A stretch of 64,000 nt of DNA from an uncultured virus (IMG/VR IMGVR_UViG_3300034375_008561) (taxonomy: Duplodnaviria > Heunggongvirae > Uroviricota > Caudoviricetes): IMG/VR virus record IMGVR_UViG_3300034375_008561; one strand, 5' to 3'. Below the pieces are notes generated by a model. The model made no database searches. It was not told where the DNA came from and saw only the letters and a program-made list of their open reading frames with translations. Positions 7,478 through 64,000 of this stretch are shown here, piece by piece (position 1 is the first letter of the stretch; every line of letters starts with the position of its first letter). Both the position numbers and the translations under genes were made by a program.

Positions 7478-8203
7478 TTATAAGTTTTCTTTAATCCAAT
7501 CTTCTATTGTACTATATTTAGGAGATAAATCTTTAGGTAAATCAGCTATAATATGTATATCCACTACACCATCTTGAGAATTAAATTCTCTTGCACTATT
7601 AAAAGCATCTGTAAGTTCATCTTTACTATACATCTTCTCTTCAACAGAAGTAATATTAACAGTATTGTCTTGGTTTAGCTTGAGTTTTGGGTAATCTTCT
7701 TTTACTTCCATATCAGTTCCCCACCATTCATCATACTCAACTTCCCACTCTCCATTAGAATTAGCAATAAATTCTTCTAAGAATGATTGTTGTAGTTGTG
7801 GTATCTTCTGATAATTTTTACCCTCTATTCTTGTTATCTGACAATTATAAATCTTACAATTATAATTTTCACCCACATACTTTAAAAGTTTAGGGTCAGT
7901 AGTTGCTATGATTTTTCTACAAGCTTCATTAATATAACATAAATGATTATCAGATTCTAACTCATTGGTACTATTAAAACCTACACATTTATGTATAGTA
8001 GTAGAATCTCCTACAATAAACAAATCACCTACTTTAATAGGCTCTACATCCTGTGATACTGTGATGTATATGTGTTGAGTGATACTGAAACTTGTTCTTT
8101 TATACATGTCATCTAAATAGGAAGGTGTTTTAGAATCCCCTATTATAGCAATAGGACTGTTGTCTTCTGTTGGTAGCATTACTACCTGTGCTTTATTTTT
8201 CAT
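7478..8203 (-). CDS. hypothetical protein, paralog of 6800-7468
   Basis: Same conserved blocks as the neighbour. Confidence 0.8.
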   Translation of the reverse strand: MKNKAQVVMLPTEDNSPIAIIGDSKTPSYLDDMYKRTSFSITQHIYITVSQDVEPIKVGDLFIVGDSTTIHKCVGFNSTNELESDNHLCYINEACRKIIATTDPKLLKYVGENYNCKIYNCQITRIEGKNYQKIPQLQQSFLEEFIANSNGEWEVEYDEWWGTDMEVKEDYPKLKLNQDNTVNITSVEEKMYSKDELTDAFNSAREFNSQDGVVDIHIIADLPKDLSPKYSTIEDWIKENL

Positions 8204-8220
8204 TATTCATTTATTTTTAG

Positions 8221-8618
8221 TGGAGACGCTGGGACTCGAACCCAGGTCTTTCACATATCAATAATAATATTTTATACAGCTTCACGTTTCTTTAAATTCT
8301 TTACGCTAGATTAGGACCAACTGTTAAGTTGATGCTCCACCAGATTGTTTTTTTTATCACAGACAGTAACAATCAAATCTATCTGTTGCATAATCTTAGC
8401 TTATGCTGCTATTAAAACTTGACCTCCCATGGTATCTTGCGATACACCTTGGAAATCATTAAGAATGTTGTGAACAACACTCATGTTAGCTTCAATCTGT
8501 GCAGTTTCCTGCGTACTAGTTGTGTTTCCATTTAAGTAAACTCACCTTAGTTTTAGACAGTTATCTCTCTGTGCTGAATATTATTAAATCGCTATGAAAT
8601 CAATTCCATGTCGTCCCC
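8221..8618 (-). ncRNA. ssrA: tmRNA (transfer-messenger RNA), 398 nt, CCA not encoded
   Basis: 5' GGGGACG pairs with 3' CGTCTCC-A, giving a G3.U70 alanine identity pair. T-arm CTGGG-TTCGAGT-CCCAG. Helix 2 TAATAATATT/AATATTATTA and CAGC/GCTG. Tag frame at 8529-8401 ends GCA GCA TAA. Confidence 0.95.
8401..8529 (-). other. tmRNA tag reading frame (A)GNTTSTQETAQIEANMSVVHNILNDFQGVSQDTMGGQVLIAA*
   Basis: Resume context TTAAAT-GGA, then 42 open codons ending in LIAA-stop. Confidence 0.75.
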
Positions 8619-8779: not shown

Positions 8780-9322
8780 TTAATCTACCCACTCTATTAG
8801 TGGACACCAATTTCTATATAATGACACAAGCATACTCCACATAAACCTAAATGGCATGCCGAGGTAATAGCCTAACTTCTTCTCTGCAAACAAATACACA
8901 AGTAAGACTATGATGGCAAGAAGAAGTGCTACTCCTCCTGTAACTGCTAACACAACAACTGTGTTTACAATTAGACCATAAATATATGCTACAAGCATAC
9001 CCAATAAGAATCCACCAATTGCTATGAAATATATCCATTTAAGTCCTGTTCCAATTATCATCCAAATTCTCGCTTTAGCTATTGGTTTAACTACATTCTG
9101 CCACACTACACTATCTCCTATAGAGTCAAACGCCTGCTCAACTTTATTTTCTGTAGGTAAGAGAGAATATATCAATCTTATAGGTAGTGCAATAGGTAGT
9201 AATAGAATTGTTAATACATATCCCCAAGAATATGGACACATTGTCTTCAGATTAGTGGCATCTGTCAGCCACATCCAATTGTAAAATCTTACAAAAATTG
9301 ATTTCTTATTTAATTTATACAT
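8780..9322 (-). CDS. membrane protein
   Basis: 180 aa with several long hydrophobic segments. Confidence 0.75.
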   Translation of the reverse strand: MYKLNKKSIFVRFYNWMWLTDATNLKTMCPYSWGYVLTILLLPIALPIRLIYSLLPTENKVEQAFDSIGDSVVWQNVVKPIAKARIWMIIGTGLKWIYFIAIGGFLLGMLVAYIYGLIVNTVVVLAVTGGVALLLAIIVLLVYLFAEKKLGYYLGMPFRFMWSMLVSLYRNWCPLIEWVD

Positions 9323-12567: not shown

Positions 12568-12909
12568 TTACTTAGACTTTGAAATCTCAGCTAATTGCTC
12601 TTGCAAGAAGGCAACAGTTTCTAAATGCCCATCTAATTCTTCTTGTGCTGCTTCAACATGTCTTCGTTTTGAGAGAATTGTTATCAAGTAATCATCAGTA
12701 TCAGTAATCTGATATCCTTTGTTCACAAGAGCATTCTGTAAGCTCTCTTGTGCATTCTCAACGTTCTCTTCAAGAGACAAAGTGAATGCTTGTTTAACTG
12801 CAACCTGTGCAGTAAAAGCTGCTTTAGCTTTCTTTTGGATTTTCAATGCTAATACCTTGGCATCATCTCCCTCAATAAGGGCAACAATCGTTTTTAGAAA
12901 ATTGTTCAT
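12568..12909 (-). CDS. hypothetical coiled-coil protein
   Basis: 113 aa, helical Ala/Glu/Gln-rich. Confidence 0.75.
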   Translation of the reverse strand: MNNFLKTIVALIEGDDAKVLALKIQKKAKAAFTAQVAVKQAFTLSLEENVENAQESLQNALVNKGYQITDTDDYLITILSKRRHVEAAQEELDGHLETVAFLQEQLAEISKSK

Positions 12910-47646: not shown

Positions 47647-48564
47647 ATGAGCGAACTTAAATTTGTAACAATAGATAGAATACTTGCAAAGCTCAACAGA
47701 GATTTGAAAGGTTCATTGCTAAATGAGGGAGACGTTATTGAAATGATAGGTGAATCCCTTGAATTCCTTAAGGTCCCACAGGTATTAGAACAGTCAGTAG
47801 CCTTTTTAAAAGTAGAAGACTATCATGCTGTTATACCTGATGGTTTGCACATGGTAACACAAATAGCTAGAAACAACAAACCAACAGAATGTACTTGCCC
47901 AGCATCAGATGTATCTGCTGTGAGCACAGATGAAGAAGTTACTATACCAGTAAATGTTCCATGTGAATGTAACTTTACTTGCCCAGATAGGATACTAAAT
48001 CCTGACTGGACTTATGAGGTATGGACAAGCTCACCTGAATATGAAAGAAACTACTCTGTTGTTAGATTAGCCACAGGAACATTCTTTAACTCTTTGGTAT
48101 GCAAGGAGAAAGATGAGTCATTATATATGACCTGCGAGGATGAATACACAATAGTTGGAACAGTAGATAAGAGATTAAGATTTAATTTTATTGAAGGTCA
48201 GGTAGCAATAGCTTACTTGAGAAACACTATTGACCAAGAAACAGGCTATCCATTAGTACCTGAGCATATTTCTTATATCTCTGCAATCACTTATTACATT
48301 AAGTGGAAATTAGCTGAGATGTATGAGTGGGCTGGTAGAGATGGTTGGGCAGGCAAAGCTGACAAGGCTGAAGCTAGATGGATAAAATATGCAAGACAAG
48401 CTAAAAATGAAATGAAGATGCCAAAAACTCTAGACCAATACCAGAACTTACTTGAGCAAACTCATCAATTAATACCAAACCACAGAAGATATTATGGTTA
48501 CTTTGGAAACTTAGGTAAAGACCAACCTAGAATTTATAATACATTAAACAAAGTCTATGGATAA
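47647..48564 (+). CDS. tail tubular/ring protein
   Basis: DQETGYPLVPE...AITYYIKWK, directly upstream of the muzzle gene. Confidence 0.65.
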   Translation: MSELKFVTIDRILAKLNRDLKGSLLNEGDVIEMIGESLEFLKVPQVLEQSVAFLKVEDYHAVIPDGLHMVTQIARNNKPTECTCPASDVSAVSTDEEVTIPVNVPCECNFTCPDRILNPDWTYEVWTSSPEYERNYSVVRLATGTFFNSLVCKEKDESLYMTCEDEYTIVGTVDKRLRFNFIEGQVAIAYLRNTIDQETGYPLVPEHISYISAITYYIKWKLAEMYEWAGRDGWAGKADKAEARWIKYARQAKNEMKMPKTLDQYQNLLEQTHQLIPNHRRYYGYFGNLGKDQPRIYNTLNKVYG

Positions 48565-51500
48565 GAATACTACACCTATCAAAGGGGGATTACATTTAGA
48601 TAATTCTCGTACTGATGTCCCAAAAGGGACATATCAATATGCATTAAATGCAGTAAATGAAACTGAGCAAGGTGACAACTCTTTTCTTTCAAATGAAGGC
48701 AGTAACACTCCTTGTGGACCTTTACCCTCTGGTTATATACCAATAGGTTCAGTCTACATAGGAAATAACAAAACTGCTATCTTTTCTATTAGTCAAGATG
48801 GCTCTACTAGCGAAATAGGTGTTAGAGATGAAGAATGTAATTATGTTACACACGTAAACGGAAACTTAGGGTTTAAAATTACACAGCAAATTGATGCAAC
48901 CTTCAGGTTGAGAAAAGGATGTGAAAGGACAATTTACTGGGTTGATGGTAAGAACAATAAACCAATGTATTATGTATTTGAGAAGCCTTGGCAATTCCAA
49001 ACTGATTTAGGGGCTTGGGATAAAAATAAATTTGAGCTCCAAAGGAGTTATGGGAAAGTACCTAGATTTCAAGAAGTTGAAGTTCTTAATTCTGGAGGAC
49101 AATTAGAGGCAGGTTCATATAATATAGGCATAAGATACAAAGATGAAAACTTAAATCCAACAGAATGGATTACTACATCTGAAGTAATTTTAGTATATAA
49201 CACTGACACTAATGAAGAGTATCTAGATATTAGTGGAAGTATAAATATAGAATCAGGAGCAGATATAGAAGATTATAGAGATTTTCCAACTACAGATAAA
49301 GCGATAAGAGTAGTGTTAGATAATTTAGATACTACTTTCTTATTTTATCAACTAGCATTTATAGAAGCAACAACAGGTAATGGACAGATTAGTGCTATAA
49401 AATATACAGAAGATATACCTATAGATAATAGTATCTTTATTTTTACAGGAGGAAATTTTAGTGTTAATGGTACAGAAGAAGAAATTAAAGCTGTAACAGC
49501 TATTATTGAATCAGCAGGGTCTATTGAGCAGGCAGACAATATGTTAATCTTAGGTAACACTCAAGGGAAACAAGTTAATTTCTGTAAGTTACAAAGATAT
49601 GCATCTAGGATTCAAGCAGATATGACAGTAAAAAATGTATTGTCTAATAACATGATAGACCCAGCAAATCCAAAAAGTCCTACAGCTAGATTTGAAGGAG
49701 TAGGATATATGCCAGGAGAAATATATTCTTTTGGTATTATCTATGTATTTAAAGATGGGTCTCAGTCTCCTGTATATCATATCCCTGGAAAAAGTAATAG
49801 TATACTGTCTCCATTAGGGGATAATGTTTCAGAAAATTATATATTTCAACCAGCTATTGGGCAAGAAATTTATCCTATGTCTATTGATAATGGAAGTTTG
49901 AATTCTAGATATAGTGATAATAGTACTTGTGAAGATGGAGATTTTTGGGGAGTTGATTCAATAGGAACTCCCTTAACAGGAAATTTGGTCAGACATCATA
50001 GATTCCCATTAAGGAGTGATATAGGTTTACCTTTAGTTAGTTTAGATACAGTAGAAGGTGGAGTAAGCACATATTATCAAATAAAATTAAGTGTTACAGG
50101 TACTATACTGTCTTCTTTTGTTTGTGATGCAACAGGTGTTTCAAATGGTGACTGCCTCTCTACAGAATTAGGATTACAAATTCCTTATGATATTTTTCAA
50201 GTTAGGATAAGTTTTGAGCATGAGGGACAACCTGATGAAATGATTGTTAATATAAATCCTTTAGATTACTTAGGTGTGGGAGATACAGCTACAATTGATT
50301 TAGCAGAATACTCAAACTATTTAATTACAAATGCAATCACTATCACAAACCTTCAAGAAAGTAAATATGATGGTACTGCTGTAAGTCTTGGTACCACTTC
50401 AGGAACTGGGGATGTAGAACATGGGTCATTATCCTACACTGTGGAAGTTGTTCCAGCAGAATTTAATTCAGAGACTCGTCTTTACTCTACAAAAATGTAT
50501 GGTATACAATTTTCAAATATCGATTTACCTACTGTTGAAGACACAGGAGGAGAAGAAATTATTGGATATTATATAGTTAGAAATGAAAGGACTGAGTTAG
50601 AAAAAACTATTTTAGATAGTGCTGTTCTTACTCCAACAGTTACAAATGACAAATATATTTCTCATGGATTAATGTTTCCTGAATTCAATGGGGCTCCTAG
50701 AGTGTCTCAGGAAGTTATGGGATTAATTCACCCTGAACATAAATTTCACAATAAAAAATATTCTGAGTATTCAGAAATGATTCAACAAGGTGGATTTAAA
50801 GTTATACAAAGAGAAAAAAGTAAAAGTAGATATTTAGATATTACTGATGGAACAACCTTTGACTCTTCTGTACACAAAGGAGGAGGTGGTCAAGATGATG
50901 ATGGATGGTCTTTAAAAGCTATTACTAGGGATAACATCACAGAATTTGTTACAGAGTATGATGAGTTTAATTATACAGAAGCAGAGATTGAAGACACTTT
51001 TTATTTAAAGGCTCTTCAAAGCAGAAATATACAAGCAGAAGAAAAGAAAGTATTTAATCTTGCAGGAGATAATAGAGTAGGTATTGTAGAGCTTGCAACA
51101 GGCACAAATGCATATATTACAGACACATTACCTTATGTCTATATTAAGCGACCAATAGCAGATTCATATTCCACATTTAGGTCTCTGCCTTATTATAAAA
51201 CAAGCATAAATATGCATGAATTTTATGATGCAGCAGGAGTCTATGACCCTGATAGTGATACTACTGTTGAGTTTGCAGGAGACACATATATATCCGCTAT
51301 GAGGTATGTCAACACAATGTGGTGGGATAACAGAGTGGCTAAAAGGGCTGGGAGAACATCAGTCTGGAGTTATATAATTGGTGCCATACTTATTGTGATA
51401 GGAGCTATTCTAACTATTTTTGGAGTAGGAGTCATAGTAATTGGACTAGGTATTGCAGTTCTTGGAGCTGGAGCATTATTTATTTCTTCAGGTATTGAAA

Positions 51501-54391
51501 GAGATGCTTTAGTAAGAGCATACTATGATGAGTATGATAAAGGGTTAAGAGAGACTACTTTAGATGATTGGGTAAGTAAAGAATATCAAGACTTACCTTG
51601 TGAAGGATATGGTAGAACAACATGTGATACACCTGAAGATGATGAAATAGAGTGGTTAGCAGATTGTGTAACAGATTTATGGTTTGAATCTCAAATTAAT
51701 ATATCTTTAAGGTACGGAATGACTTCTGGTGTTCCTACATTCCTAAATGCACCAGGTAAACTAGAATCAGGTAATACAGAGGTGGAACAAGCCTATGAAC
51801 ATTTTGATATCTATAAGCAGAGGGATGTTTCAATATATCCTTTTACAAAATTGGATAGACATGTTATGGATAAGCTTTTGGTATTTAGCCCTGAAAGAGG
51901 AGATAGCAGAGAATACATAGGACACCCATTAGGAGAATGGTATGAAATCAATCCTGATTATAAGAGAGAAAATCATGAAAAATCATACTTTCATTTGCCA
52001 ATTGAATATGATTGTTGTTCAGAATGTCAAGAGGATTTTCCTCACAGAATTCATAATTCTCAGCAATCATTCCAAGAAGAATTAACTGATAACTTCAGAG
52101 TGTTCTTACCTAATGATTATAGAGATATAGAAGGTGAGACAGGGCAGATTACAGATTTGTTTAGAATATCAAACAACATCTATATCCATACTGAAGAAGC
52201 ATTATGGCACCAACCTCAAAACTTCCAAGAAAGAGTTACAGGGGATATTGTGTCCTTCTTAGGAACTGGTGGTTATTTCAATATACCTCCAAGAAAAATA
52301 TTAGATGATAATAAAGCTTCTGCAGGGACTAGACATAGATGGGGAACTACAAAGACTAAGCATGGTGTATTCTTTGTCTCTGAGCAAGAAAACAAAATAT
52401 ACAATTTTGATGGGAATGCTTTAAATCCTATTTCTGATATAGGAATGTCCTCTTGGTTTAATAAGAATACAAAAATTAAATTACTAAGTGATTATTATGA
52501 TTCAGATGGTTCAGTATTTCCTTATGATAATAATCCTTCAAACCCTTATGGAGTTGGTTTTATTTCTGTCTATGACACAGAGAAAGAAAGAGTACTCTTT
52601 ACTAAAAAAGATAAAGTATTAAATGAAGCTTTACCAGCCAATGGGGACTATGAAATTTGTACTTTAGGTGGAGACCTCACTATATTTGAAGATATCAGTC
52701 AGACAATTGCAACTAGGGCTTTAGCTGGGTGGACATACACGGGTATAGAGGATTGTAGATTAAGATTTGAAAGGACTATTAATAATACACAAACTGTAAC
52801 AGGGCAAGTATTGCATTTAGAAACACTACCTACTACAGCTGATATTGTGGTACATTATGATACCTCTGGTTCTTTTACTCCAACAGCAAGAGCAGACATT
52901 AAAGCTGTTGTCGATGCATGGTTACTTACATTCCAAGCAAATAACCCAGGATGGGTTGGAAGTTTATACCATTTTGAAACGGGTTCTTCATCTGGAGAAG
53001 TTTGGATAAATGCACTTGATGAAGTATTAAATTCTCCATCTTTGCCTTTCCTTGCAAGACCTAATGATGAAATAGATATGGTAATGGTGTCTTTCACTAA
53101 TGAATCAGACCCACATTATCATTCTAATGTATTATCTAATCCTATGCAGTCTCCTCCTGCATTGTTTGATACTCATGCAGCTCAATTTAGACTCCAACAT
53201 GATACTTTAAAATCATTTAAAGGTTTATTATACCCTGTAGTATTTTCTACTGGTGGTGGCAGTGATGCTTCTACTAGAGTATTTTATCAAACTATGCTTG
53301 GAGCAATAAAAAATACAAATTATTCAACAGGAGAGACAGATGTTATCCCTGTAAATCCAGGTTTTTCTGCTCCAGACTGGGCTATATTAATAGGTTCTTT
53401 ACAAAATGCTATTGGTTATGCTCAATATGTTGGTTTTGAAAATTATGGTTGGAAAGTTGTTTATGATAGCTGGTGGGATGGTAATGTTTTAAACCCTATT
53501 GTAGATGAGGCTGAATTTAATACAAACATTGAGGAATTCTTAACAGGTACTCCTGTGGTATTATATGACAATCAAGATATAGAAATTAATGTACCTACAG
53601 TAGAAGTAGAATATGAAGATGGTATACCTACTGAGTTAGCACAAGGAGACCAATCTTGGACTATGAGTTATTCTTTAAAAGGTAAGTCATGGACTTCTTG
53701 GCATTCTTATTTACCTGACTTTTATTATTCAATAGCAGGTAAATTTTATTCCTGGATAAATGAGATTGATTTAGAATTCCCAAGACCAAATAGTTTTTAT
53801 AAACATAACGTGCATGCTCAGTACCAGAGATTCTATTATTCTCAGGTGCCTTTTATTGTAGAGTACACATCTTTATCAGACCCTATAAAAACTAGAGTAT
53901 GGGAGGATATTAAACTTCACACTGAGGCAAAGAAATGGGATGCAGTAAATGAAGAATACATAGACCAAAGATTTATAACTTTTAATAAAGCTATAATGTA
54001 TAACCACAGACAGTGTACAGGAGAGCTTATATTAGAGCCTAAGAGCACAGATGATGATAATGTAGACTACTTATTAGAGCAAGTAGTAAACAACCCAGGA
54101 CTCACCATCACAGTAGATAAGAATGAGGGAGATTGGTCTCTTAATGATATCAGAGACATTAGAGTAGATTATGACCAAACTATATTTGATTCTAATATAA
54201 TGTCACGCCAAAGTGATTACTATACGGACAAAATATTAAATGTTTCAGCTCTAGATGAAAATAAATCACCATGGGAACTTGAAAGTTTCAGAGGAAAATA
54301 TTTGGTAGTTAGGTTAATATTCGATAACTTTGATGACGTTAAGCTGATTATGAACTATTCTATTGAAACTGAACAGGTTACAGATGTTTAA
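48557..54391 (+). CDS. tail stabilisation/muzzle protein (1944 aa) with insertions
   Basis: GYMPGEIYSFGIIY, FLPNDYRD...GQIT, WTMSYS...WTSWHSYLPD, FRGKYLVVRL; synteny. Confidence 0.75.
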   Translation: MDKNTTPIKGGLHLDNSRTDVPKGTYQYALNAVNETEQGDNSFLSNEGSNTPCGPLPSGYIPIGSVYIGNNKTAIFSISQDGSTSEIGVRDEECNYVTHVNGNLGFKITQQIDATFRLRKGCERTIYWVDGKNNKPMYYVFEKPWQFQTDLGAWDKNKFELQRSYGKVPRFQEVEVLNSGGQLEAGSYNIGIRYKDENLNPTEWITTSEVILVYNTDTNEEYLDISGSINIESGADIEDYRDFPTTDKAIRVVLDNLDTTFLFYQLAFIEATTGNGQISAIKYTEDIPIDNSIFIFTGGNFSVNGTEEEIKAVTAIIESAGSIEQADNMLILGNTQGKQVNFCKLQRYASRIQADMTVKNVLSNNMIDPANPKSPTARFEGVGYMPGEIYSFGIIYVFKDGSQSPVYHIPGKSNSILSPLGDNVSENYIFQPAIGQEIYPMSIDNGSLNSRYSDNSTCEDGDFWGVDSIGTPLTGNLVRHHRFPLRSDIGLPLVSLDTVEGGVSTYYQIKLSVTGTILSSFVCDATGVSNGDCLSTELGLQIPYDIFQVRISFEHEGQPDEMIVNINPLDYLGVGDTATIDLAEYSNYLITNAITITNLQESKYDGTAVSLGTTSGTGDVEHGSLSYTVEVVPAEFNSETRLYSTKMYGIQFSNIDLPTVEDTGGEEIIGYYIVRNERTELEKTILDSAVLTPTVTNDKYISHGLMFPEFNGAPRVSQEVMGLIHPEHKFHNKKYSEYSEMIQQGGFKVIQREKSKSRYLDITDGTTFDSSVHKGGGGQDDDGWSLKAITRDNITEFVTEYDEFNYTEAEIEDTFYLKALQSRNIQAEEKKVFNLAGDNRVGIVELATGTNAYITDTLPYVYIKRPIADSYSTFRSLPYYKTSINMHEFYDAAGVYDPDSDTTVEFAGDTYISAMRYVNTMWWDNRVAKRAGRTSVWSYIIGAILIVIGAILTIFGVGVIVIGLGIAVLGAGALFISSGIERDALVRAYYDEYDKGLRETTLDDWVSKEYQDLPCEGYGRTTCDTPEDDEIEWLADCVTDLWFESQINISLRYGMTSGVPTFLNAPGKLESGNTEVEQAYEHFDIYKQRDVSIYPFTKLDRHVMDKLLVFSPERGDSREYIGHPLGEWYEINPDYKRENHEKSYFHLPIEYDCCSECQEDFPHRIHNSQQSFQEELTDNFRVFLPNDYRDIEGETGQITDLFRISNNIYIHTEEALWHQPQNFQERVTGDIVSFLGTGGYFNIPPRKILDDNKASAGTRHRWGTTKTKHGVFFVSEQENKIYNFDGNALNPISDIGMSSWFNKNTKIKLLSDYYDSDGSVFPYDNNPSNPYGVGFISVYDTEKERVLFTKKDKVLNEALPANGDYEICTLGGDLTIFEDISQTIATRALAGWTYTGIEDCRLRFERTINNTQTVTGQVLHLETLPTTADIVVHYDTSGSFTPTARADIKAVVDAWLLTFQANNPGWVGSLYHFETGSSSGEVWINALDEVLNSPSLPFLARPNDEIDMVMVSFTNESDPHYHSNVLSNPMQSPPALFDTHAAQFRLQHDTLKSFKGLLYPVVFSTGGGSDASTRVFYQTMLGAIKNTNYSTGETDVIPVNPGFSAPDWAILIGSLQNAIGYAQYVGFENYGWKVVYDSWWDGNVLNPIVDEAEFNTNIEEFLTGTPVVLYDNQDIEINVPTVEVEYEDGIPTELAQGDQSWTMSYSLKGKSWTSWHSYLPDFYYSIAGKFYSWINEIDLEFPRPNSFYKHNVHAQYQRFYYSQVPFIVEYTSLSDPIKTRVWEDIKLHTEAKKWDAVNEEYIDQRFITFNKAIMYNHRQCTGELILEPKSTDDDNVDYLLEQVVNNPGLTITVDKNEGDWSLNDIRDIRVDYDQTIFDSNIMSRQSDYYTDKILNVSALDENKSPWELESFRGKYLVVRLIFDNFDDVKLIMNYSIETEQVTDV
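54301..54332 (+). promoter_or_regulatory. Bacteroidota-type promoter for cargo genes, inside the muzzle 3' end
   Basis: TTTG-20 nt-TAACTTTG. Confidence 0.55.
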
Positions 54392-58106: not shown

Positions 58107-61100
58107 ATGGATGAATTTGCAATTGAAGTACTAAAAGCTAATGGGTATGATTATGACAGTGGTGGAATAATTGATGCAGAAGGTAATTTTCTATCTTCAG
58201 TAGAATTAAATGGTAAAACATACACTTCTGAGGCAGACCCAGTTCTCTGGGAAGAAGCACAACAACCTCAGTATCGTGAAACTGGAGCACCTGACCCTGT
58301 ACAAGACTTTAGAGGTTTTGAAGCTGACCCATTAGGGACTGCACTTACCCCAGCTCAAAAGGAAAATTATCCTATGTATGCTCAAATACAGGAAGAGCAA
58401 GGGCTCCCAACTTATGATGATGCAAACATCTATGAAAAAGAGATGGAAAGGCAAGCTGAAGAAGAAATGGAAGACCCTTATTATGGTACATTGAGAGAGT
58501 TACAGGAAGAAGGACATGAGGGAATTAACGATGAGTTAATCAATAAGATAAAAGAAAATGAAAAGTTCATCGCTGAAGTTGAAGCAAAAGACCCAAGTTG
58601 GAATGTTAATATAAGAGAGAAGGATGATACTGATGAACAAATAGAAGATGCAGCTATGTATAATGTACCAGGTATAGCAGCTGGTTACATAGAAAAAGGA
58701 GTAATGGGTCTAGTTAAATGGGCAAACTCAACCTTCTATGGTGAGAGTGCTGGTATGAATGGGACTAAAGAAGAAAAATTAGCTTATGAAAAAGCTTTGC
58801 AGGATAGAAAAGAAATGAAAAAACCTGCAGCTAGAATAATGAAAGCTAAGATAGATGAAAAATTAGCTGAGCTTAATCCTGTATGGGAGGAGATGAGTAT
58901 GTTAGAAACAATTCACCCAGACAATGATATTGTAAGATATGCAATTAATGAATTAGAGCAAGAGAAAGCTTTAATTGATAACTCAATAGATGAGCAATGG
59001 ATATTCAATCCTCTTAGTGATAAATATACAATTAACACATTAACTGCAGGTTTTCAAGGTGTGATTGATAAATATATGCACTTTCAACCATTAGCTAATA
59101 AAGTTACAAAAGGTGAAGAACTTACTGAAAATGAACAACTTGCAGCAGAAGCCTTAGGTTTACAAACAAAAACACAAGGTATGCAACTTGAACAACACTG
59201 GATGCATGGTTTAACAAAAGGTACTTTTGATAGTGCAGCATTCTTATATGGTGGTGCAGTAGGTAGGGTTGCAATGAAAGGTGTAACAAAAGCAGTAACC
59301 ACAGCTGCATCTAAGCAAGTGGGTAATCTATTTGGTAATATTATAGGAGGAAGTGTAAACATGACTGGACAAGCTATCCTACACCCTGAGTCTCATATTA
59401 GAGCAATAGATAAATATTATGGTTCAATTGCTATGGATGTTGATGCAGAGGGTAAGCCTGTTTTGACAACAGACAGAAGAACTTATGCTACTCTTATGGA
59501 AGAGATGACCCAAAAAGAGGATGAGCTTGAAGAAATGTTGCTTACTGCAAAAGACCCTGACATGAGAAGAAACCTTCAGGCTGTCTTAAAGAGTACACAA
59601 GATATTAAGAATGGATTAGTTGAGCCAGAAACCTTGGCTAACTCTATTGGTTATGGATTTACATCAGTTCTTACAGAGAATACTATTGAGAACTACGGTT
59701 TAAAGATAGGAAAAGGGTTGATTAAAAACCCAGTAACAAAAAAATTAGCGTCTAAAAACTGGGTTAAATCAGTAGCTGCAAGTAGAGCTGCTAAAGGAAC
59801 TGGAGCTGCACTTAATAAAGTGGATAATCTCTTTATGGGTGTCAAAAGAAAATTCAATGCTATCACAGGAGATGGAGGGTCTAAACTAGTTGGTGGTAAC
59901 TTTGAAGAAATGGGTGAAGAAGTCGCAACACAATTGGTACCTGTTTGGGGAGAAACTGATGAAGAAGCTATTGCAAGAAAAGGTGAACTGCTTGAATTGT
60001 CTTTTTATGGGCAAGTAGCAGGGCAAACTCTATTGATGGGTGGACTGATGAAAGGTGTTCATGCACCAGCTGCAGGATTATCTGCTCTTCAAAATAGTAG
60101 AAATAAAGATGTAAAAAAGGCTAGACAAGCCTACAAAGACCTCGTAAAAGAATTTGGAAAAGGAAATATCACAGAGGCTGAGACCCATGAGTTACTAATG
60201 AAAGCTGGTGGTGGTAAGTTCACAGTTCAAGAGTACAACAATAAAATAAACCAGCTAAAAGCCCAAGGTGATTTTGCTGGAGCAGCTGATGTTGAAAGAA
60301 ATAAGACTTTCAATATTGGTAAGGAAATGATAAAAAATGGTAAAGGGAAGCAATTTGTTAGAGATATGAATCGCCTTATAGCCAATGGTACTATACCTGC
60401 AGAATCTACCCCAGCTGTAATGGAAGCTGTAAATGAAATAAAGAAAATGAATGGTGATATGTCTAAGCACGGTGACCTTAGAAATAAGGACTTTGTCTTA
60501 GAATTGAAATCCAAGCAACGTTATACTGCAAATCAAAAAAAGAAGATAAAAGAAGAAATGACAAGATTGCAGGGTGAAGAAGTTTCTCCACAAAGAGATG
60601 GGTCCATTAAAGGGCTAGAGACTGCATTGGCTAATATAGAAACCTTTGAAGGTCGTCTCAATAAGCAACTAAGACTGGAAACTTCAGAAGCAATGAGAGA
60701 TAAACTGCAAAAAGAAGCTGAGATTACCCAGGAACTTGTTAAAAACTACAAAAAACATGAAGGTGACAAGGGTACAGGCTATGTAAAGATTACAAGAAAA
60801 GAGGCTATTGATAAGATGGAGAAGAAATATGGTAATACTATTCAGAGTTCTGTCAAACAAATGGCTAAGAAAAATCTTGATAGATACATTCTTAATGAGA
60901 CCATTGATGAGCACATGAAGAAGTTTGAGGCTATGCCTGCAAACAAACCAAATGAAACCGAAACAAAAGTTGATAATCAAAATCCTCCTGAGGATGGTGC
61001 AACACCACCACCAACATCAACTCCACCTGCAGAAACACAAGAGGTAACAGCAAAGCAAACAAAGGTTAAAGACCATGTTGATAAACTAAGTAAAAGTATC

Positions 61101-64000
61101 GATGATGTTACTGCACAATTAGAACAACAGCAGACATTATTTGATGATGAGGGTAGTCTAAATTTAGCATCCCCTGATACTAATGTACCTCCAACTAAAG
61201 AACCAGACACTGACCCTGCAAAGGATGCAACTCTAGAACAAGCAGAGCTTATGGATACTGCATTCTTTGATGATATGCCAAAAGCATCAGATGGTAAATT
61301 TGAAAATGAACCATTCCAAGCTATGGTAGATGCTGTGAAGACAAGAGTTAAAGAAATGGAAGAAGAAAATGGTGAAGCTCCTACATTTGATGACTATGTT
61401 GATGAGATGTTAGAGAATGGTGATGTTGAGGCAGATGTTATGAAAGGTCACATGAGAGCCCTAGGTTTAGCCTGGGATGGAGCTCAACTAGGAAAATCAA
61501 ATTGGAAAAAATCTTACAATGAGAGATATGCTAGTATGGAAGCAATGTTAGCTTTGGATGCAGCAAAAAGAAGTAATGTACCTCCAAAGGTTAAAACTGA
61601 TGAGGAAATTGTAGAAGAGGAGAAAGAACAAGAACAAGTGGCAGGTAAGAAGACTAATTCTGAACCTATCACATATAATCCAGACACTGGAGAAGGTTCA
61701 CATGTTACACCTAATAAGCAAAAACATTACGGTACAGAACACAAAGCAAACTTCTCTGCTATTCAATATGAAGAGGAGATTACCATAGATGAAAATGGTA
61801 AAGAAGTACGTAAAAAAGTCAATGCACCTGTGCCTCAAGCAAATATGGAGAGTTCTGTTAATTGGTGGGACTTAGTAAATCCTAATAAGAATAACATAGG
61901 TGACAAACTAATTCCAACTTTATTAGAGGGAGAAGAATTAGCAAACACTGATGTAGCTGTTAGAGATGAGAGAGGTATTCAAATACCTGGGAAGTCAGAA
62001 ACCTTTGAAGCATGGACATTGAGAACCATGGAGGAAAAATACCCAAGCTTAACATTTGAACAATTTCAAGAAACTCAAGAATATAAGGACAAAGTACCTA
62101 TGGTCTATAAAGACTCTAATGGAAGCAATGTGGCTTATGTACCTGAGGTTATGTGGTTTAATGCAAATTCTGTTGGAGACCCAACTGATGTTGAAGAAAT
62201 CGATTTAAACAATCCAACTGCATATCATCAAAAACTCATAGACCAAAATAGAGAGCAAGCTCGTGCTTTGAGAAATGGAATTCTATCTGGTGATGTTGTA
62301 GGAATGGAGATAGCAGATAATTTGAGTATGCCTCCATTTATTAAGATGGAGAAGCAAGATGCAGATGGTATGCCCATCCCAACAGCTCCATTAAATCAAA
62401 TGCATCCTGATACAAGACTTGTTCAAATGAATCCAAATGGACAGTTCTATGGATTAGATGGTGTTAGTTTAAAAGATGAACACGCTGACATTATTAACTA
62501 TGGAGATGATAAGTCAGGTTTAGGTAAAATGGAGATGAAGCAGCAAGGAAAAGCTAAATCCCAAGTAGCAACTAATAAAGGACACTACTATGCTCTTAGT
62601 TTTATAGGTATGAAAGATGGTAGAAAACAATATATAGCTATTGAACTTAATAGAAAGAAAGAAGATGGGCTTACAGATGGAGCTCATAAAGACGATATAG
62701 AAACTGCAAGATGGATTGCAGCCACAAATAAAATTACAAAATTCCCTAATTCTCCAGTTGGGGATAATGATACTCACCCTAATCACATGACTAAGACTGA
62801 GGCTGAGGCTTTGAGAAGACAAATCCTGGAGGTAACTGGTATTGATGTAAAAGATAAGTATGCTGATATGCTTGAAGCTAGAGTTGCACACCATTTAGGT
62901 GGGTTTTCCAAAAAGACAACCTTTGGTAAAGACACCATAGGCATGCTATTAGGATTTAATGAAACTGCAGGGACATATACAAAACCTGACAGTGAGTGGG
63001 TAAGTAACATGAAGTTTAAGTTTAATGCTCCAATGGTTACTATTAAAAGGAATCCTGACAGGTCATTTGAAGTTAAGCTAGTTGAGATAACACCTAAAAC
63101 AGTAAATGGTGAAAAAGTTACTCAAGCTAAAAACTATGAAGATTTCTTAAAAGAAAGACTATCAAGTAATGTAATGGGATTCAATGTAGGTACTGAGGCA
63201 AACCCAGTGTTTACAGCTGCACCTCAACAAAGATATAAACTTACACCTATACTTAAAGACAAAACCCTTGAGGACCACAAAGAGACCTTTAAACAAGAGG
63301 TAGAGGATTTGAAACAAGATGAGAAGGTAGAGAAGAAAACAACTGAAGTTGAAACAAAAGATGCTCCAGTAGTAGCTGATACTAAGATTATTGATAAGGC
63401 TAAGCGAAAAGAAGCAATGACTCAAGCTGCAGCTCTTGCTAAAAGATTAAACCTCAACATTGAAGATATTTCAGAAATCGATAACTTAGTTGTTGCAGAA
63501 ATGGCTACAACTGAGCAGGTTGAAAAGGGAATACTAAGTACTCCTGGCTTAACTATCAAGCAAGAAGAACAAGTTGTAGACTGGTTATTCAGTCAGTTAT
63601 CATCAAAAGAAGGAACTTATGAGGATGCAAAGCACAGAATTAGTGGAATCTTAACTCTTAATGTTGAAGAACTAAACCAATCAATCTCTGACCTTCAAGC
63701 ATTTAAAGATAACCCAGTTGTCCTTCAGATGATTTTGAACATGGAACAAGCTGTAGAACAGCAAACTGAAGTACTTAATTCACTAGATGAATTGGTAGCT
63801 GAAGCTGGACTAAGAGCAGTGAACGTTGATTTTGTCTCAGAAGAGTTTGATGTAGAAGAATGGGAAGAGAATATTAAAGATTTCTCAAAAGGTGCAGGAG
63901 AAGTTAAATCTATTGATAAAGTAGGAACTGCATTGAAAAGAATCTTTGCTCAAGTTTCTGATGGACAAACAGGATTTATGGGACTTGAAACATTCCCTGG
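58107..64000 (+). CDS. giant virion cargo protein, partial (>1960 aa, no stop seen; not in ORF track)
   Basis: ATG 58107 MDEFAIEVLKANG...; the same frame is open at spot checks and at the window end (DGQTGFMGLETFP). Position matches crAss-like giant cargo/virion RNA polymerase genes. Confidence 0.75.
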   Translation, partial: MDEFAIEVLKANGYDYDSGGIIDAEGNFLSSVELNGKTYTSEADPVLWEEAQQPQYRETGAPDPVQDFRGFEADPLGTALTPAQKENYPMYAQIQEEQGLPTYDDANIYEKEMERQAEEEMEDPYYGTLRELQEEGHEGINDELINKIKENEKFIAEVEAKDPSWNVNIREKDDTDEQIEDAAMYNVPGIAAGYIEKGVMGLVKWANSTFYGESAGMNGTKEEKLAYEKALQDRKEMKKPAARIMKAKIDEKLAELNPVWEEMSMLETIHPDNDIVRYAINELEQEKALIDNSIDEQWIFNPLSDKYTINTLTAGFQGVIDKYMHFQPLANKVTKGEELTENEQLAAEALGLQTKTQGMQLEQHWMHGLTKGTFDSAAFLYGGAVGRVAMKGVTKAVTTAASKQVGNLFGNIIGGSVNMTGQAILHPESHIRAIDKYYGSIAMDVDAEGKPVLTTDRRTYATLMEEMTQKEDELEEMLLTAKDPDMRRNLQAVLKSTQDIKNGLVEPETLANSIGYGFTSVLTENTIENYGLKIGKGLIKNPVTKKLASKNWVKSVAASRAAKGTGAALNKVDNLFMGVKRKFNAITGDGGSKLVGGNFEEMGEEVATQLVPVWGETDEEAIARKGELLELSFYGQVAGQTLLMGGLMKGVHAPAAGLSALQNSRNKDVKKARQAYKDLVKEFGKGNITEAETHELLMKAGGGKFTVQEYNNKINQLKAQGDFAGAADVERNKTFNIGKEMIKNGKGKQFVRDMNRLIANGTIPAESTPAVMEAVNEIKKMNGDMSKHGDLRNKDFVLELKSKQRYTANQKKKIKEEMTRLQGEEVSPQRDGSIKGLETALANIETFEGRLNKQLRLETSEAMRDKLQKEAEITQELVKNYKKHEGDKGTGYVKITRKEAIDKMEKKYGNTIQSSVKQMAKKNLDRYILNETIDEHMKKFEAMPANKPNETETKVDNQNPPEDGATPPPTSTPPAETQEVTAKQTKVKDHVDKLSKSIDDVTAQLEQQQTLFDDEGSLNLASPDTNVPPTKEPDTDPAKDATLEQAELMDTAFFDDMPKASDGKFENEPFQAMVDAVKTRVKEMEEENGEAPTFDDYVDEMLENGDVEADVMKGHMRALGLAWDGAQLGKSNWKKSYNERYASMEAMLALDAAKRSNVPPKVKTDEEIVEEEKEQEQVAGKKTNSEPITYNPDTGEGSHVTPNKQKHYGTEHKANFSAIQYEEEITIDENGKEVRKKVNAPVPQANMESSVNWWDLVNPNKNNIGDKLIPTLLEGEELANTDVAVRDERGIQIPGKSETFEAWTLRTMEEKYPSLTFEQFQETQEYKDKVPMVYKDSNGSNVAYVPEVMWFNANSVGDPTDVEEIDLNNPTAYHQKLIDQNREQARALRNGILSGDVVGMEIADNLSMPPFIKMEKQDADGMPIPTAPLNQMHPDTRLVQMNPNGQFYGLDGVSLKDEHADIINYGDDKSGLGKMEMKQQGKAKSQVATNKGHYYALSFIGMKDGRKQYIAIELNRKKEDGLTDGAHKDDIETARWIAATNKITKFPNSPVGDNDTHPNHMTKTEAEALRRQILEVTGIDVKDKYADMLEARVAHHLGGFSKKTTFGKDTIGMLLGFNETAGTYTKPDSEWVSNMKFKFNAPMVTIKRNPDRSFEVKLVEITPKTVNGEKVTQAKNYEDFLKERLSSNVMGFNVGTEANPVFTAAPQQRYKLTPILKDKTLEDHKETFKQEVEDLKQDEKVEKKTTEVETKDAPVVADTKIIDKAKRKEAMTQAAALAKRLNLNIEDISEIDNLVVAEMATTEQVEKGILSTPGLTIKQEEQVVDWLFSQLSSKEGTYEDAKHRISGILTLNVEELNQSISDLQAFKDNPVVLQMILNMEQAVEQQTEVLNSLDELVAEAGLRAVNVDFVSEEFDVEEWEENIKDFSKGAGEVKSIDKVGTALKRIFAQVSDGQTGFMGLETFP

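Follow-up and report, generated by a model that had tools for sequence, protein, structure and literature searches.

A long tag frame with a conserved core in a family of flavobacterial phage tmRNAs

The tmRNA gene and its reading frame

The uncultured virus record IMGVR_UViG_3300034375_008561 from IMG/VR, of which we analyzed a stretch of 64,000 nucleotides (nt; here, the window), carries a gene for a transfer-messenger RNA (tmRNA) whose tag reading frame comprises 42 codons. An initial annotation, made from the sequence alone, had proposed a phage tmRNA at this locus, and both parts of that proposal hold. The Rfam model RF00023 matches over its full length (1-374) at 8218-8618 on the minus strand, scoring 57.4 bits (gathering score, 47; E = 6.9e-20), and the window encodes a crAss-type terminase, portal, and major head protein as well as a 1944-residue virion protein. 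The gene is in one piece at 8218-8618 (minus strand); the body of the RNA, as read in the sequence, runs to 8221, for a length of 398-401 nt.

The tRNA-Ala-like domain is complete, as initially read. The 5' strand of the acceptor stem, GGGGACG (8612-8618), pairs with CGTCTCC (8228-8222) and includes the G3.U70 pair. The segment at 8221-8245 consists of the T arm CTGGG/TTCGAGT/CCCAG (8245-8229), the 3' acceptor strand, and the discriminator A (8221), all supported by the sequence and by Rfam. The three bases that follow the discriminator (8220-8218) are CTA, and the CCA end is therefore not encoded. Rfam alignment and covariation place the strands of helix 2 at 8573-8601 (5') and 8247-8280 (3'), on the same minus strand.

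This domain changes by compensation among relatives of the RNA, which we collected as described below. Across 58 unique full-length sequences among the matches listed, compensatory changes occur in 13 of 20 consensus pairs: two in the acceptor stem (pairs 5 and 6), eight in helix 2, and three of the five in the T stem. The extraction of these sequences demanded seven pairs in the acceptor stem and, in part, the T-loop pattern, while helix 2 and the identity of pair 3 were left free. All 58 keep G3.U70. In helix 2, the C23T change between the window and its closest listed relative (L012) is matched by the paired change G365A. The RNA thus evolves as a tmRNA, conserving its structure.

The resume context TTAAAT (8530-8535, minus strand) lies directly 5' of the first tag codon, GGA, as indicated by both the sequence and Rfam. 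The frame that follows runs for 42 codons from 8529 to a TAA stop codon at 8403-8401 (8401-8529 in all, minus strand) and encodes GNTTSTQETAQIEANMSVVHNILNDFQGVSQDTMGGQVLIAA, the same translation that the initial annotation had given. It takes up 129 nt of the 398-401 nt gene, again as first stated, and closes with LIAA-TAA, a hydrophobic-Ala-Ala end.

Only about 120 nt follow the stop codon in this shortened region. They hold one pseudoknot candidate and one hairpin, whereas the RF00023 consensus has several further stems. In the pseudoknot candidate (8343-8386, minus strand), ACAGATAG (8386-8379) would pair with CTGTCTGT (8366-8359) as stem 1, and GATTGTT (8374-8368) with AACAATC (8349-8343) as stem 2, which crosses stem 1. 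The hairpin GGA..CAACU UAAC AGUUG..UCC (8314-8338) takes the place of the later pseudoknots and differs by one base in L012. When the 125 nt after the stop codon were shuffled, 14 of 1,000 dinucleotide shuffles reached the score of the top interleaved combination of stems. This combination, the one to which the test applies, has stem 1 in common with the candidate and a different stem 2. No listed relative carries the same cassette in this part of the gene. The compression of the post-tag region reported initially therefore stands, stems included, but the "one clear pseudoknot" seen there is better described as plausible, without comparative support.

Long tags across flavobacterial phage tmRNAs

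A blastn search against phage genomes returned related stretches in 38 records, from 29 Flavobacterium phages and nine Cellulophaga phages. RF00023 scores in isolates were 86.6 bits for Calle_1, 58.2 bits for FpV4, and 46.0 bits, just under the cut-off, for phi14:2, and each of the three has GGA-AAC at the aligned resume position followed by a long frame, which makes the previously sequenced Calle_1 a member of the long-tag family described here. A conserved element, AGAGAGATAACTG..AACTAAGGTGA (8542-8570, minus strand), in the place of pseudoknot 1 (PK1) is common to the window and the three isolate phage groups. The family was collected from IMG/VR with one exact 24-base pattern from this pre-tag region, which yielded at least 120 contigs; since the element is itself the search pattern, it is conserved by construction among the pattern matches and gives no covariation there. 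The resulting set comprises 124 sequences (120 listed contigs, three isolates, and the window), and all family counts below refer to the matches listed.

The resume context is present in 123 of the 124 sequences (L107 is the exception), and complete tags could be read from 121. These amount to 83 distinct tags of 24-49 residues, with a median of 35. Most begin with G (68, against 15 with D) and end in AA (77, against five in VA and one in GV), and 82 of the 83 contain an in-frame ANM. The initial annotation had treated the long tag as a peculiarity of one RNA; instead, it is the rule across a large family of flavobacterial phage tmRNAs. The one ANM-less tag, from a 4.8-kb IMG/VR contig (L037/L194), reads GNIDNDAQEVVDINYTFSTPMMVVHKGERKSVSPSQDLSWGTRQVAIAA, with 49 open residues, an AA end, and M-VVH kept, and is either a divergent tag or the product of a frame-restoring pair of insertions and deletions.

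The strongest evidence that these RNAs are translated from the resume codon to the stop codon is that the frame is kept through many changes in length. The resume frame stays open for 24-49 codons in 123 sequences, while the +1 frame closes within 22 codons and the +2 frame within 17. The motif GCN-AAY-ATG, absent from three of 92 distinct sequences, is in frame with the resume codon in all 89 that have it, across eight lengths of the spacer between the resume codon and ANM and 13 lengths of the part after ANM. The 42-codon tag of the window is real and not a chance open frame. The family itself looks phage-borne: across 185,579 species-representative genomes, the same 24-base pattern occurs on just one contig, of 4.9 kb, from a Flavobacteriales metagenome-assembled genome.

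An alignment of 82 distinct tags locates a conserved core of the peptide at residues Q11-L23 of the window, QIEANMSVVHNIL (8461-8499, minus strand). Q11, A14, N15, and M16 (window numbering) are invariant, and V19, A41, and A42 occur in at least 90% of the tags. The invariant residues are spelled by differing codons: Ala by GCT (66), GCA (10), GCC (5), and GCG (1); Asn by AAC (51) and AAT (31); and Gln by CAA (77) and CAG (5). Val19 is encoded by GTA (42), GTT (34), or GTG (5), with one GCT (Ala), and a serine of the core is spelled both TCN and AGC. The uncorrected ratio of nonsynonymous to synonymous differences (pN/pS) in the core is 0.41. Frame-keeping, invariant upstream residues, and synonymous codon variation together show that the whole frame, rather than a short piece at its 3' end, is the conserved unit and is under selection as a peptide.

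These patterns bear directly on the position of the resume codon. If translation resumed near the 3' end of the frame, giving a tag such as DTMGGQVLIAA, the upstream codons would be untranslated RNA, and ARAGORN does place the tag start late in two relatives, calling GSSVQKLAMVA for phi14:2 and AQIEANMEAVNAILNLEVAVGV for Calle_1. We consider this highly improbable, since the resume context is homologous to that of the host tmRNAs, Q11, A14, and N15 are invariant upstream with synonymous codon variation, the frame is kept in 89 of 89 sequences over the eight spacer lengths, and the C-terminal part that would form the short tag is the least conserved part of the whole. Resumption at GGA with translation of the entire frame is the reading that we retain.

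The invariant methionine raises a different alternative, in which the locus is an ordinary small gene whose ATG, found in 82 of 82 tags, starts a 27-residue peptide, or else a functionless remnant of a decayed host tmRNA copy or attachment site. Gene callers have predicted small open reading frames (ORFs) here, and tmRNA genes are known integration sites (PMC11590407). Ordinary initiation at the methionine is disfavored because residues upstream of it are also invariant, and the compensatory changes in the tRNA-like domain and helix 2 argue against both versions. A remnant is further opposed by the full-length gene, which is not a 3' fragment, by the lack of an integrase among the PHROG and Pfam matches of the window ORFs, and by the single occurrence of the pattern in the species genomes, so that neither version has more than a very slight chance of being correct. 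An RNA structure was also considered as the cause of the conserved core. An in-frame hairpin, GAGUGUUG UUCA CAACAUUC (8463-8482, minus strand), forms eight base pairs under the residues S-V-V-H-N-I in the window, with a free energy of -8.4 kcal/mol. This is a local feature of the lineage: 85 listed relatives have a median of -3.6, and the 22 with the same V-H-N residues have one of -2.5, with several at 0. The hairpin is not conserved among relatives and was rejected as the cause.

AlphaFold2, run on the alignment of 82 tags, predicts an alpha-helix over residues 6-27 (codons at 8449-8514, minus strand), with a mean predicted local distance difference test (pLDDT) score of 88 over residues 11-20; the last 12 residues, at 48-53, are predicted to form a disordered tail ending in LIAA. 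The prediction agrees with the amphipathic-looking helix that had been suspected from the sequence, and in our reading of the model, the conserved Q and N would lie midway in its wide hydrophobic face. A three-copy complex prediction aimed at self-association of the tag, run without controls, stayed at 0.02 against a mark of 0.42, and the ESM Atlas returned no score of at least 0.9.

The tag also appears to be modular. L012, the closest relative among the matches listed, is a complete 105-kb record whose flanks match the window at 95.6% identity over the first 158 nt (5') and 98.4% over the last 125 nt (3'). Between them, about 120 nt (8341-8460, minus strand), comprising the tag from residue 24 on, the stop codon, and the pseudoknot region, are unalignable. 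Contigs from two metagenome runs (X1 and X2) join 8342 to 8461, precisely across this cassette, and carry L012-type changes in codons 4 and 5, which fits coexisting variants that differ in the tag cassette. In lake metagenome runs with this phage, contigs fragment around the tmRNA, and one form skips 8343-8460. Across the family, the same N-terminal modules combine with differing helix variants and ends. The tags therefore look, from these sequence comparisons, like modules exchanged through recombination.

Genome context, hosts, and candidate readers of the tag

The tmRNA gene sits within a minus-strand block of replication genes. Downstream on the same strand is an ORF of 241 residues (7478-8203) that matches phrog_15656, without assigned function, and has no Pfam match; its ATG lies 15 nt past the tmRNA match. 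Upstream, beyond a 161-nt spacer, is a same-strand ORF of 180 residues (8780-9322) without a PHROG or Pfam match. Besides the terminase, portal, and major head protein, PHROG matches in the window include a family A DNA polymerase and a Dda-like helicase, and the window belongs to a crAss-like phage. The 1944-residue ORF (48557-54391, plus strand) matches PHROG 15100, a virion structural protein, and is of the large virion protein kind that crAss-like phages have. A second giant ORF of more than 1964 residues (58107-63998, plus strand) is open at the window end. An Rfam match to SNORA14, a eukaryotic H/ACA small nucleolar RNA, at 12729-12817 (plus strand; 39.2 bits, cut-off 36, E = 0.00083) lies within a minus-strand ORF, folds no better than shuffled sequences (z = -0.75), and is most likely due to chance.

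The nearest DNA relatives of the window are phages of Cellulophaga and Flavobacterium, and the runs that hold most of the stretch are labeled freshwater metagenomes. A 24.9-kb fragment, G001, is the nearest record, and no tmRNA match occurs in it. In the 105-kb record of the closest listed relative (G064), the DNA polymerase and two neighbors are repeated at both ends (about 0.5-4.6 and 96.2-100.3 kb), which points to a terminal overlap that was left untrimmed or to a long terminal repeat, and the true length may thus be close to 95 kb.

A tmRNA over the cut-off occurs in 58 of 61 Flavobacteriales genomes, with the 57 chromosomal ones at 118-181 bits. ARAGORN assigns tags of 9-10 residues and the GENNYALAA type to 28 of 30 host loci, and its other two calls look misplaced. 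Several host tmRNAs have TTTAAAT directly 5' of the GGC of GENNYALAA. The phage RNA shares with the chromosomal type (SsrA, RF00023) the tRNA-like domain with G3.U70, the T arm, helix 2, the TTAAAT/GG context, the G or D start, and the hydrophobic-Ala-Ala end. It differs in its 42-residue tag, four times as long as that of the host, its lower score of 57 bits, the apparent absence of the PK1 stem of the model, and in being phage-borne without SmpB. Since the resume context and the G/D start are common to phage and host, we regard the phage RNA as derived from the flavobacterial type, with its tag enlarged.

We searched for proteins that might serve or read this tag. The absence of smpB noted initially extends beyond the window: Pfam SmpB has no match in 45 window ORFs (the remaining 22 were scanned against PHROGs only), and none of 33 phage records drawn from the listed matches, 25 of them at least 90% complete, encodes SmpB. 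SmpB must accordingly come from the host. The same 33 records have no ClpP over the cut-off (one weak match) and no Lon_C. Within 8 kb on each side of the gene, no neighboring protein cluster occurs in more than 21 of 81 listed loci, and a conserved neighbor gene was rejected as a tag partner on this ground; the 19 commonest neighbor clusters gave one subthreshold Pfam match (PDDEXK) and nothing else. A partner common to whole genomes was likewise rejected: nine genomes compared by all-against-all BLASTP share one single-linkage cluster, of large virion proteins. Mimicry of a motif in a real protein fared no better. A profile of the 82 tags searched against 1.84 billion proteins gave 80 matches, all of 28-94 residues and nearly all reaching the C-terminal end, and the 14 that we inspected are gene-caller ORFs over tmRNAs, so that the profile found no relatives outside the tmRNA frames of the family among the inspected matches.

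The lack of both a co-traveling phage partner and a protein with the motif would suit an explanation in which rescue comes first and the tag is secondary. The RNA would then supply extra rescue capacity while messages are being destroyed, and the long peptide would serve a step on the ribosome, for example, by filling the exit tunnel and pushing the arrested chain out. Every listed tag has at least 24 residues, and the median of 35 comes close to the length of an exit tunnel; the profile matches being short ORFs that nearly all end with the tag is also as expected. What speaks against this account is that 77 of the 83 tags end in hydrophobic-Ala-Ala, which points to recognition after release, that the invariant Q/N/M face of the helix suggests a specific protein contact, and that a range of 24-49 residues leaves no fixed length under selection. 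We consider it unlikely.

A chaperone raises a second possibility. A Cpn60/GroEL-type chaperonin is encoded in nine of the 33 listed records, from crAss-like phages, Calle/phi38:1, and a 68-kb phage; in the closest listed relative it lies at G064:C1:78551-80071, a second protein-quality-control gene in some of these phages. As an obligate partner of the tag the phage chaperonin was rejected, being present in only nine of the 33. It could still bear on an explanation in which the helix re-routes tagged products, either by binding them to a chaperone, a membrane, or one another or by turning them into slow substrates that keep host proteases busy, so that their fate differs from that of host-tagged proteins. 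The amphipathic helix with its wide hydrophobic face, as predicted by AlphaFold2 and the alignment, would be suited to such contacts, and the hosts have no recognizable SspB (0 of 61 genomes). Yet the chaperonin is missing from 24 of the 33 records, the ssrA-like end is conserved, and our searches found no partner. We give re-routing a similarly low probability. The hosts do retain a ClpX zinc finger in 60 of the 61 genomes, in keeping with the degradation of tagged products that we favor.

A proposed phage-set tag and its meaning

In the explanation that we think likely, though with real reservation, this is a working one-piece tmRNA of a crAss-like phage of Flavobacteriia, dependent on host SmpB, whose 42-residue tag combines a degron end with a helical site set by the phage. 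That the RNA is expressed and charged, that the resume codon is used, that tagged products are degraded, and that the helix has a role are all inferred from the features described. The RNA would probably be cut from a same-strand transcript of the replication-gene block, given its position there and the lack of a promoter or terminator of its own. Host enzymes would add CCA, host alanyl-tRNA synthetase would charge the RNA with alanine through the G3.U70 identity pair, and host SmpB and EF-Tu would bring it to stalled ribosomes. Translation would resume at GGA (8529) and read all 42 codons. The tag would then comprise a short host-like start (G-N), a 22-residue amphipathic helix presenting the invariant Q..ANM..V face, a variable disordered linker, and an ssrA-type hydrophobic-Ala-Ala end. 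Like the host tags, that end would direct rescued products to ClpXP-type proteases of the host, while the helix would act as a second recognition site set by the phage. Since no phage protein travels with the RNA, this site would most likely dock on a host factor. Judged from sequence, the phage itself would probably decide the fate of unfinished proteins.

Several observations weigh against this explanation. The Rfam score of 57 bits is far under the 118-181 bits of the host tmRNAs, and ARAGORN reports no tRNA or tmRNA genes across the 64-kb window. Of the two gene-finding checks proposed initially, the tmRNA model thus supports the gene and ARAGORN does not; the ARAGORN miss is a limit of the tool rather than a defining biological feature. 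The PK1 stem of the Rfam model appears unformed, with non-standard pairs marked in the alignment, and by eye the region offers a hairpin of only 3-4 base pairs (CAG..CUG). In E. coli, PK1 matters. In the proposed comparison of homologs, the frame is kept and the core is constrained, but pN/pS rises to 0.71 on the N-terminal side and 0.78 on the C-terminal side, both computed from columns that align poorly, so that selection outside the core rests mainly on frame-keeping. The use of one exact 24-base pattern makes the family a biased sample. Around the tmRNA, no promoter or terminator signal of its own exceeds chance, sigma-70-type sites occur at chance level, and a Bacteroidota-type promoter motif has no exact match nearby. 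None of the 20 listed runs with the stretch is an RNA run; all are DNA metagenome contigs. Our searches yielded no reader of the helix, and if its sole purpose were to mark proteins for destruction, a tag of 42 residues would be expensive.

Two known systems resemble this arrangement. The E. coli ssrA tag is bipartite, with an upstream site for the SspB adaptor and a C-terminal Ala-Ala for ClpX. By analogy, the phage tag may likewise hold two recognition elements; SspB, however, is not recognizable in any of the 61 host genomes, and the upstream element here is a predicted helix of 22 residues. The nearest precedent in logic is the long tag of Mycoplasma, which is cellular and linked to the loss of ClpXP. 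It has 27 residues, much longer than usual, and is recognized mainly by Lon without adaptors (PMC8403727). The likeness is in logic only, as the hosts here keep ClpX, the phage tags range from 24 to 49 residues, and the sequences are unrelated. More speculatively, and with doubts that outweigh our confidence, the Q..ANM..V helix could be a portable docking module, an adaptor function built into the tag by phages of SspB-less Flavobacteriia, with the tag half and the pseudoknot swapped as a cassette.

Phage tmRNAs as such are already known; what is new is a phage-borne tmRNA family with long tags and a conserved helical core. PMC9004378 reports tmRNAs in 402 of 18,146 phage genomes. It includes the ssrA of OM43 phage Melnitz, a complete tmRNA in the genome of a lytic-type phage, as here, though the Melnitz gene is permuted and in two pieces, whereas the family described here is one-piece and specific to flavobacterial phages. 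Mycobacteriophage DS6A shows the opposite design, a tag-less tmRNA reduced to the tRNA-like domain and thought to interfere with or replace host trans-translation (PMC11915505), while this family has an enlarged tag frame. According to that paper, which presents the tmRNA database, tags most often have 10 residues, and some are very short or missing; its available text does not mention long phage tags. For Cellulophaga phage Calle, PMC8776804 reports a count of "one tmRNA", and in their available text neither it nor PMC9004378 describes tag length or a conserved tag core. A full-text literature search found no description of this tmRNA family or its motif; the tmRNA database, which may list some of the genes, lay outside that search.

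Sequence annotation has largely passed over these genes. A match occurs in 29 Flavobacterium phage records, and in none of them is a tmRNA annotated at that place: 11 have no feature under the match, and 18 have no annotation at all. Further annotation gaps, in isolate genomes, are at 1440-1959 (L001), 1518-1877 (L002), and 1461-1875 (L003). In phi14:2, three "hypothetical protein" coding sequences cover the tmRNA; FpV4 has no annotated feature at its tmRNA, and ARAGORN also finds none there; and the annotated tmRNA of Calle_1 is displaced downstream by about 50 nt from where Rfam and ARAGORN place it. For phi38:1, an RNA-seq time course on Cellulophaga baltica has been published, and the word tmRNA does not appear in the main text of PMC5335546.

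The reason for phages to carry a tmRNA has no settled answer; PMC9004378 proposes the upkeep of hijacked machinery or selective tagging. The family described here offers a concrete handle on it, a peptide motif that is invariant over 82 listed tags, lies between a host-like start and a host-like degron, and occurs only in phage tmRNAs among the profile matches inspected. Culturable carriers exist in three systems, Cellulophaga phi14:2, phi38:1/Calle, and the Flavobacterium psychrophilum FpV4 group, and the idea can therefore be tested at the bench; the tag may also serve as a degradation or docking tag for Bacteroidota genetics. If the helix is indeed a docking module, the phage would control the delivery of rescued products to a host AAA+ protease or chaperone, or their retention there, and the exchange of cassettes would indicate that phage and host are still contesting how phage-made tags are read by host proteolysis.

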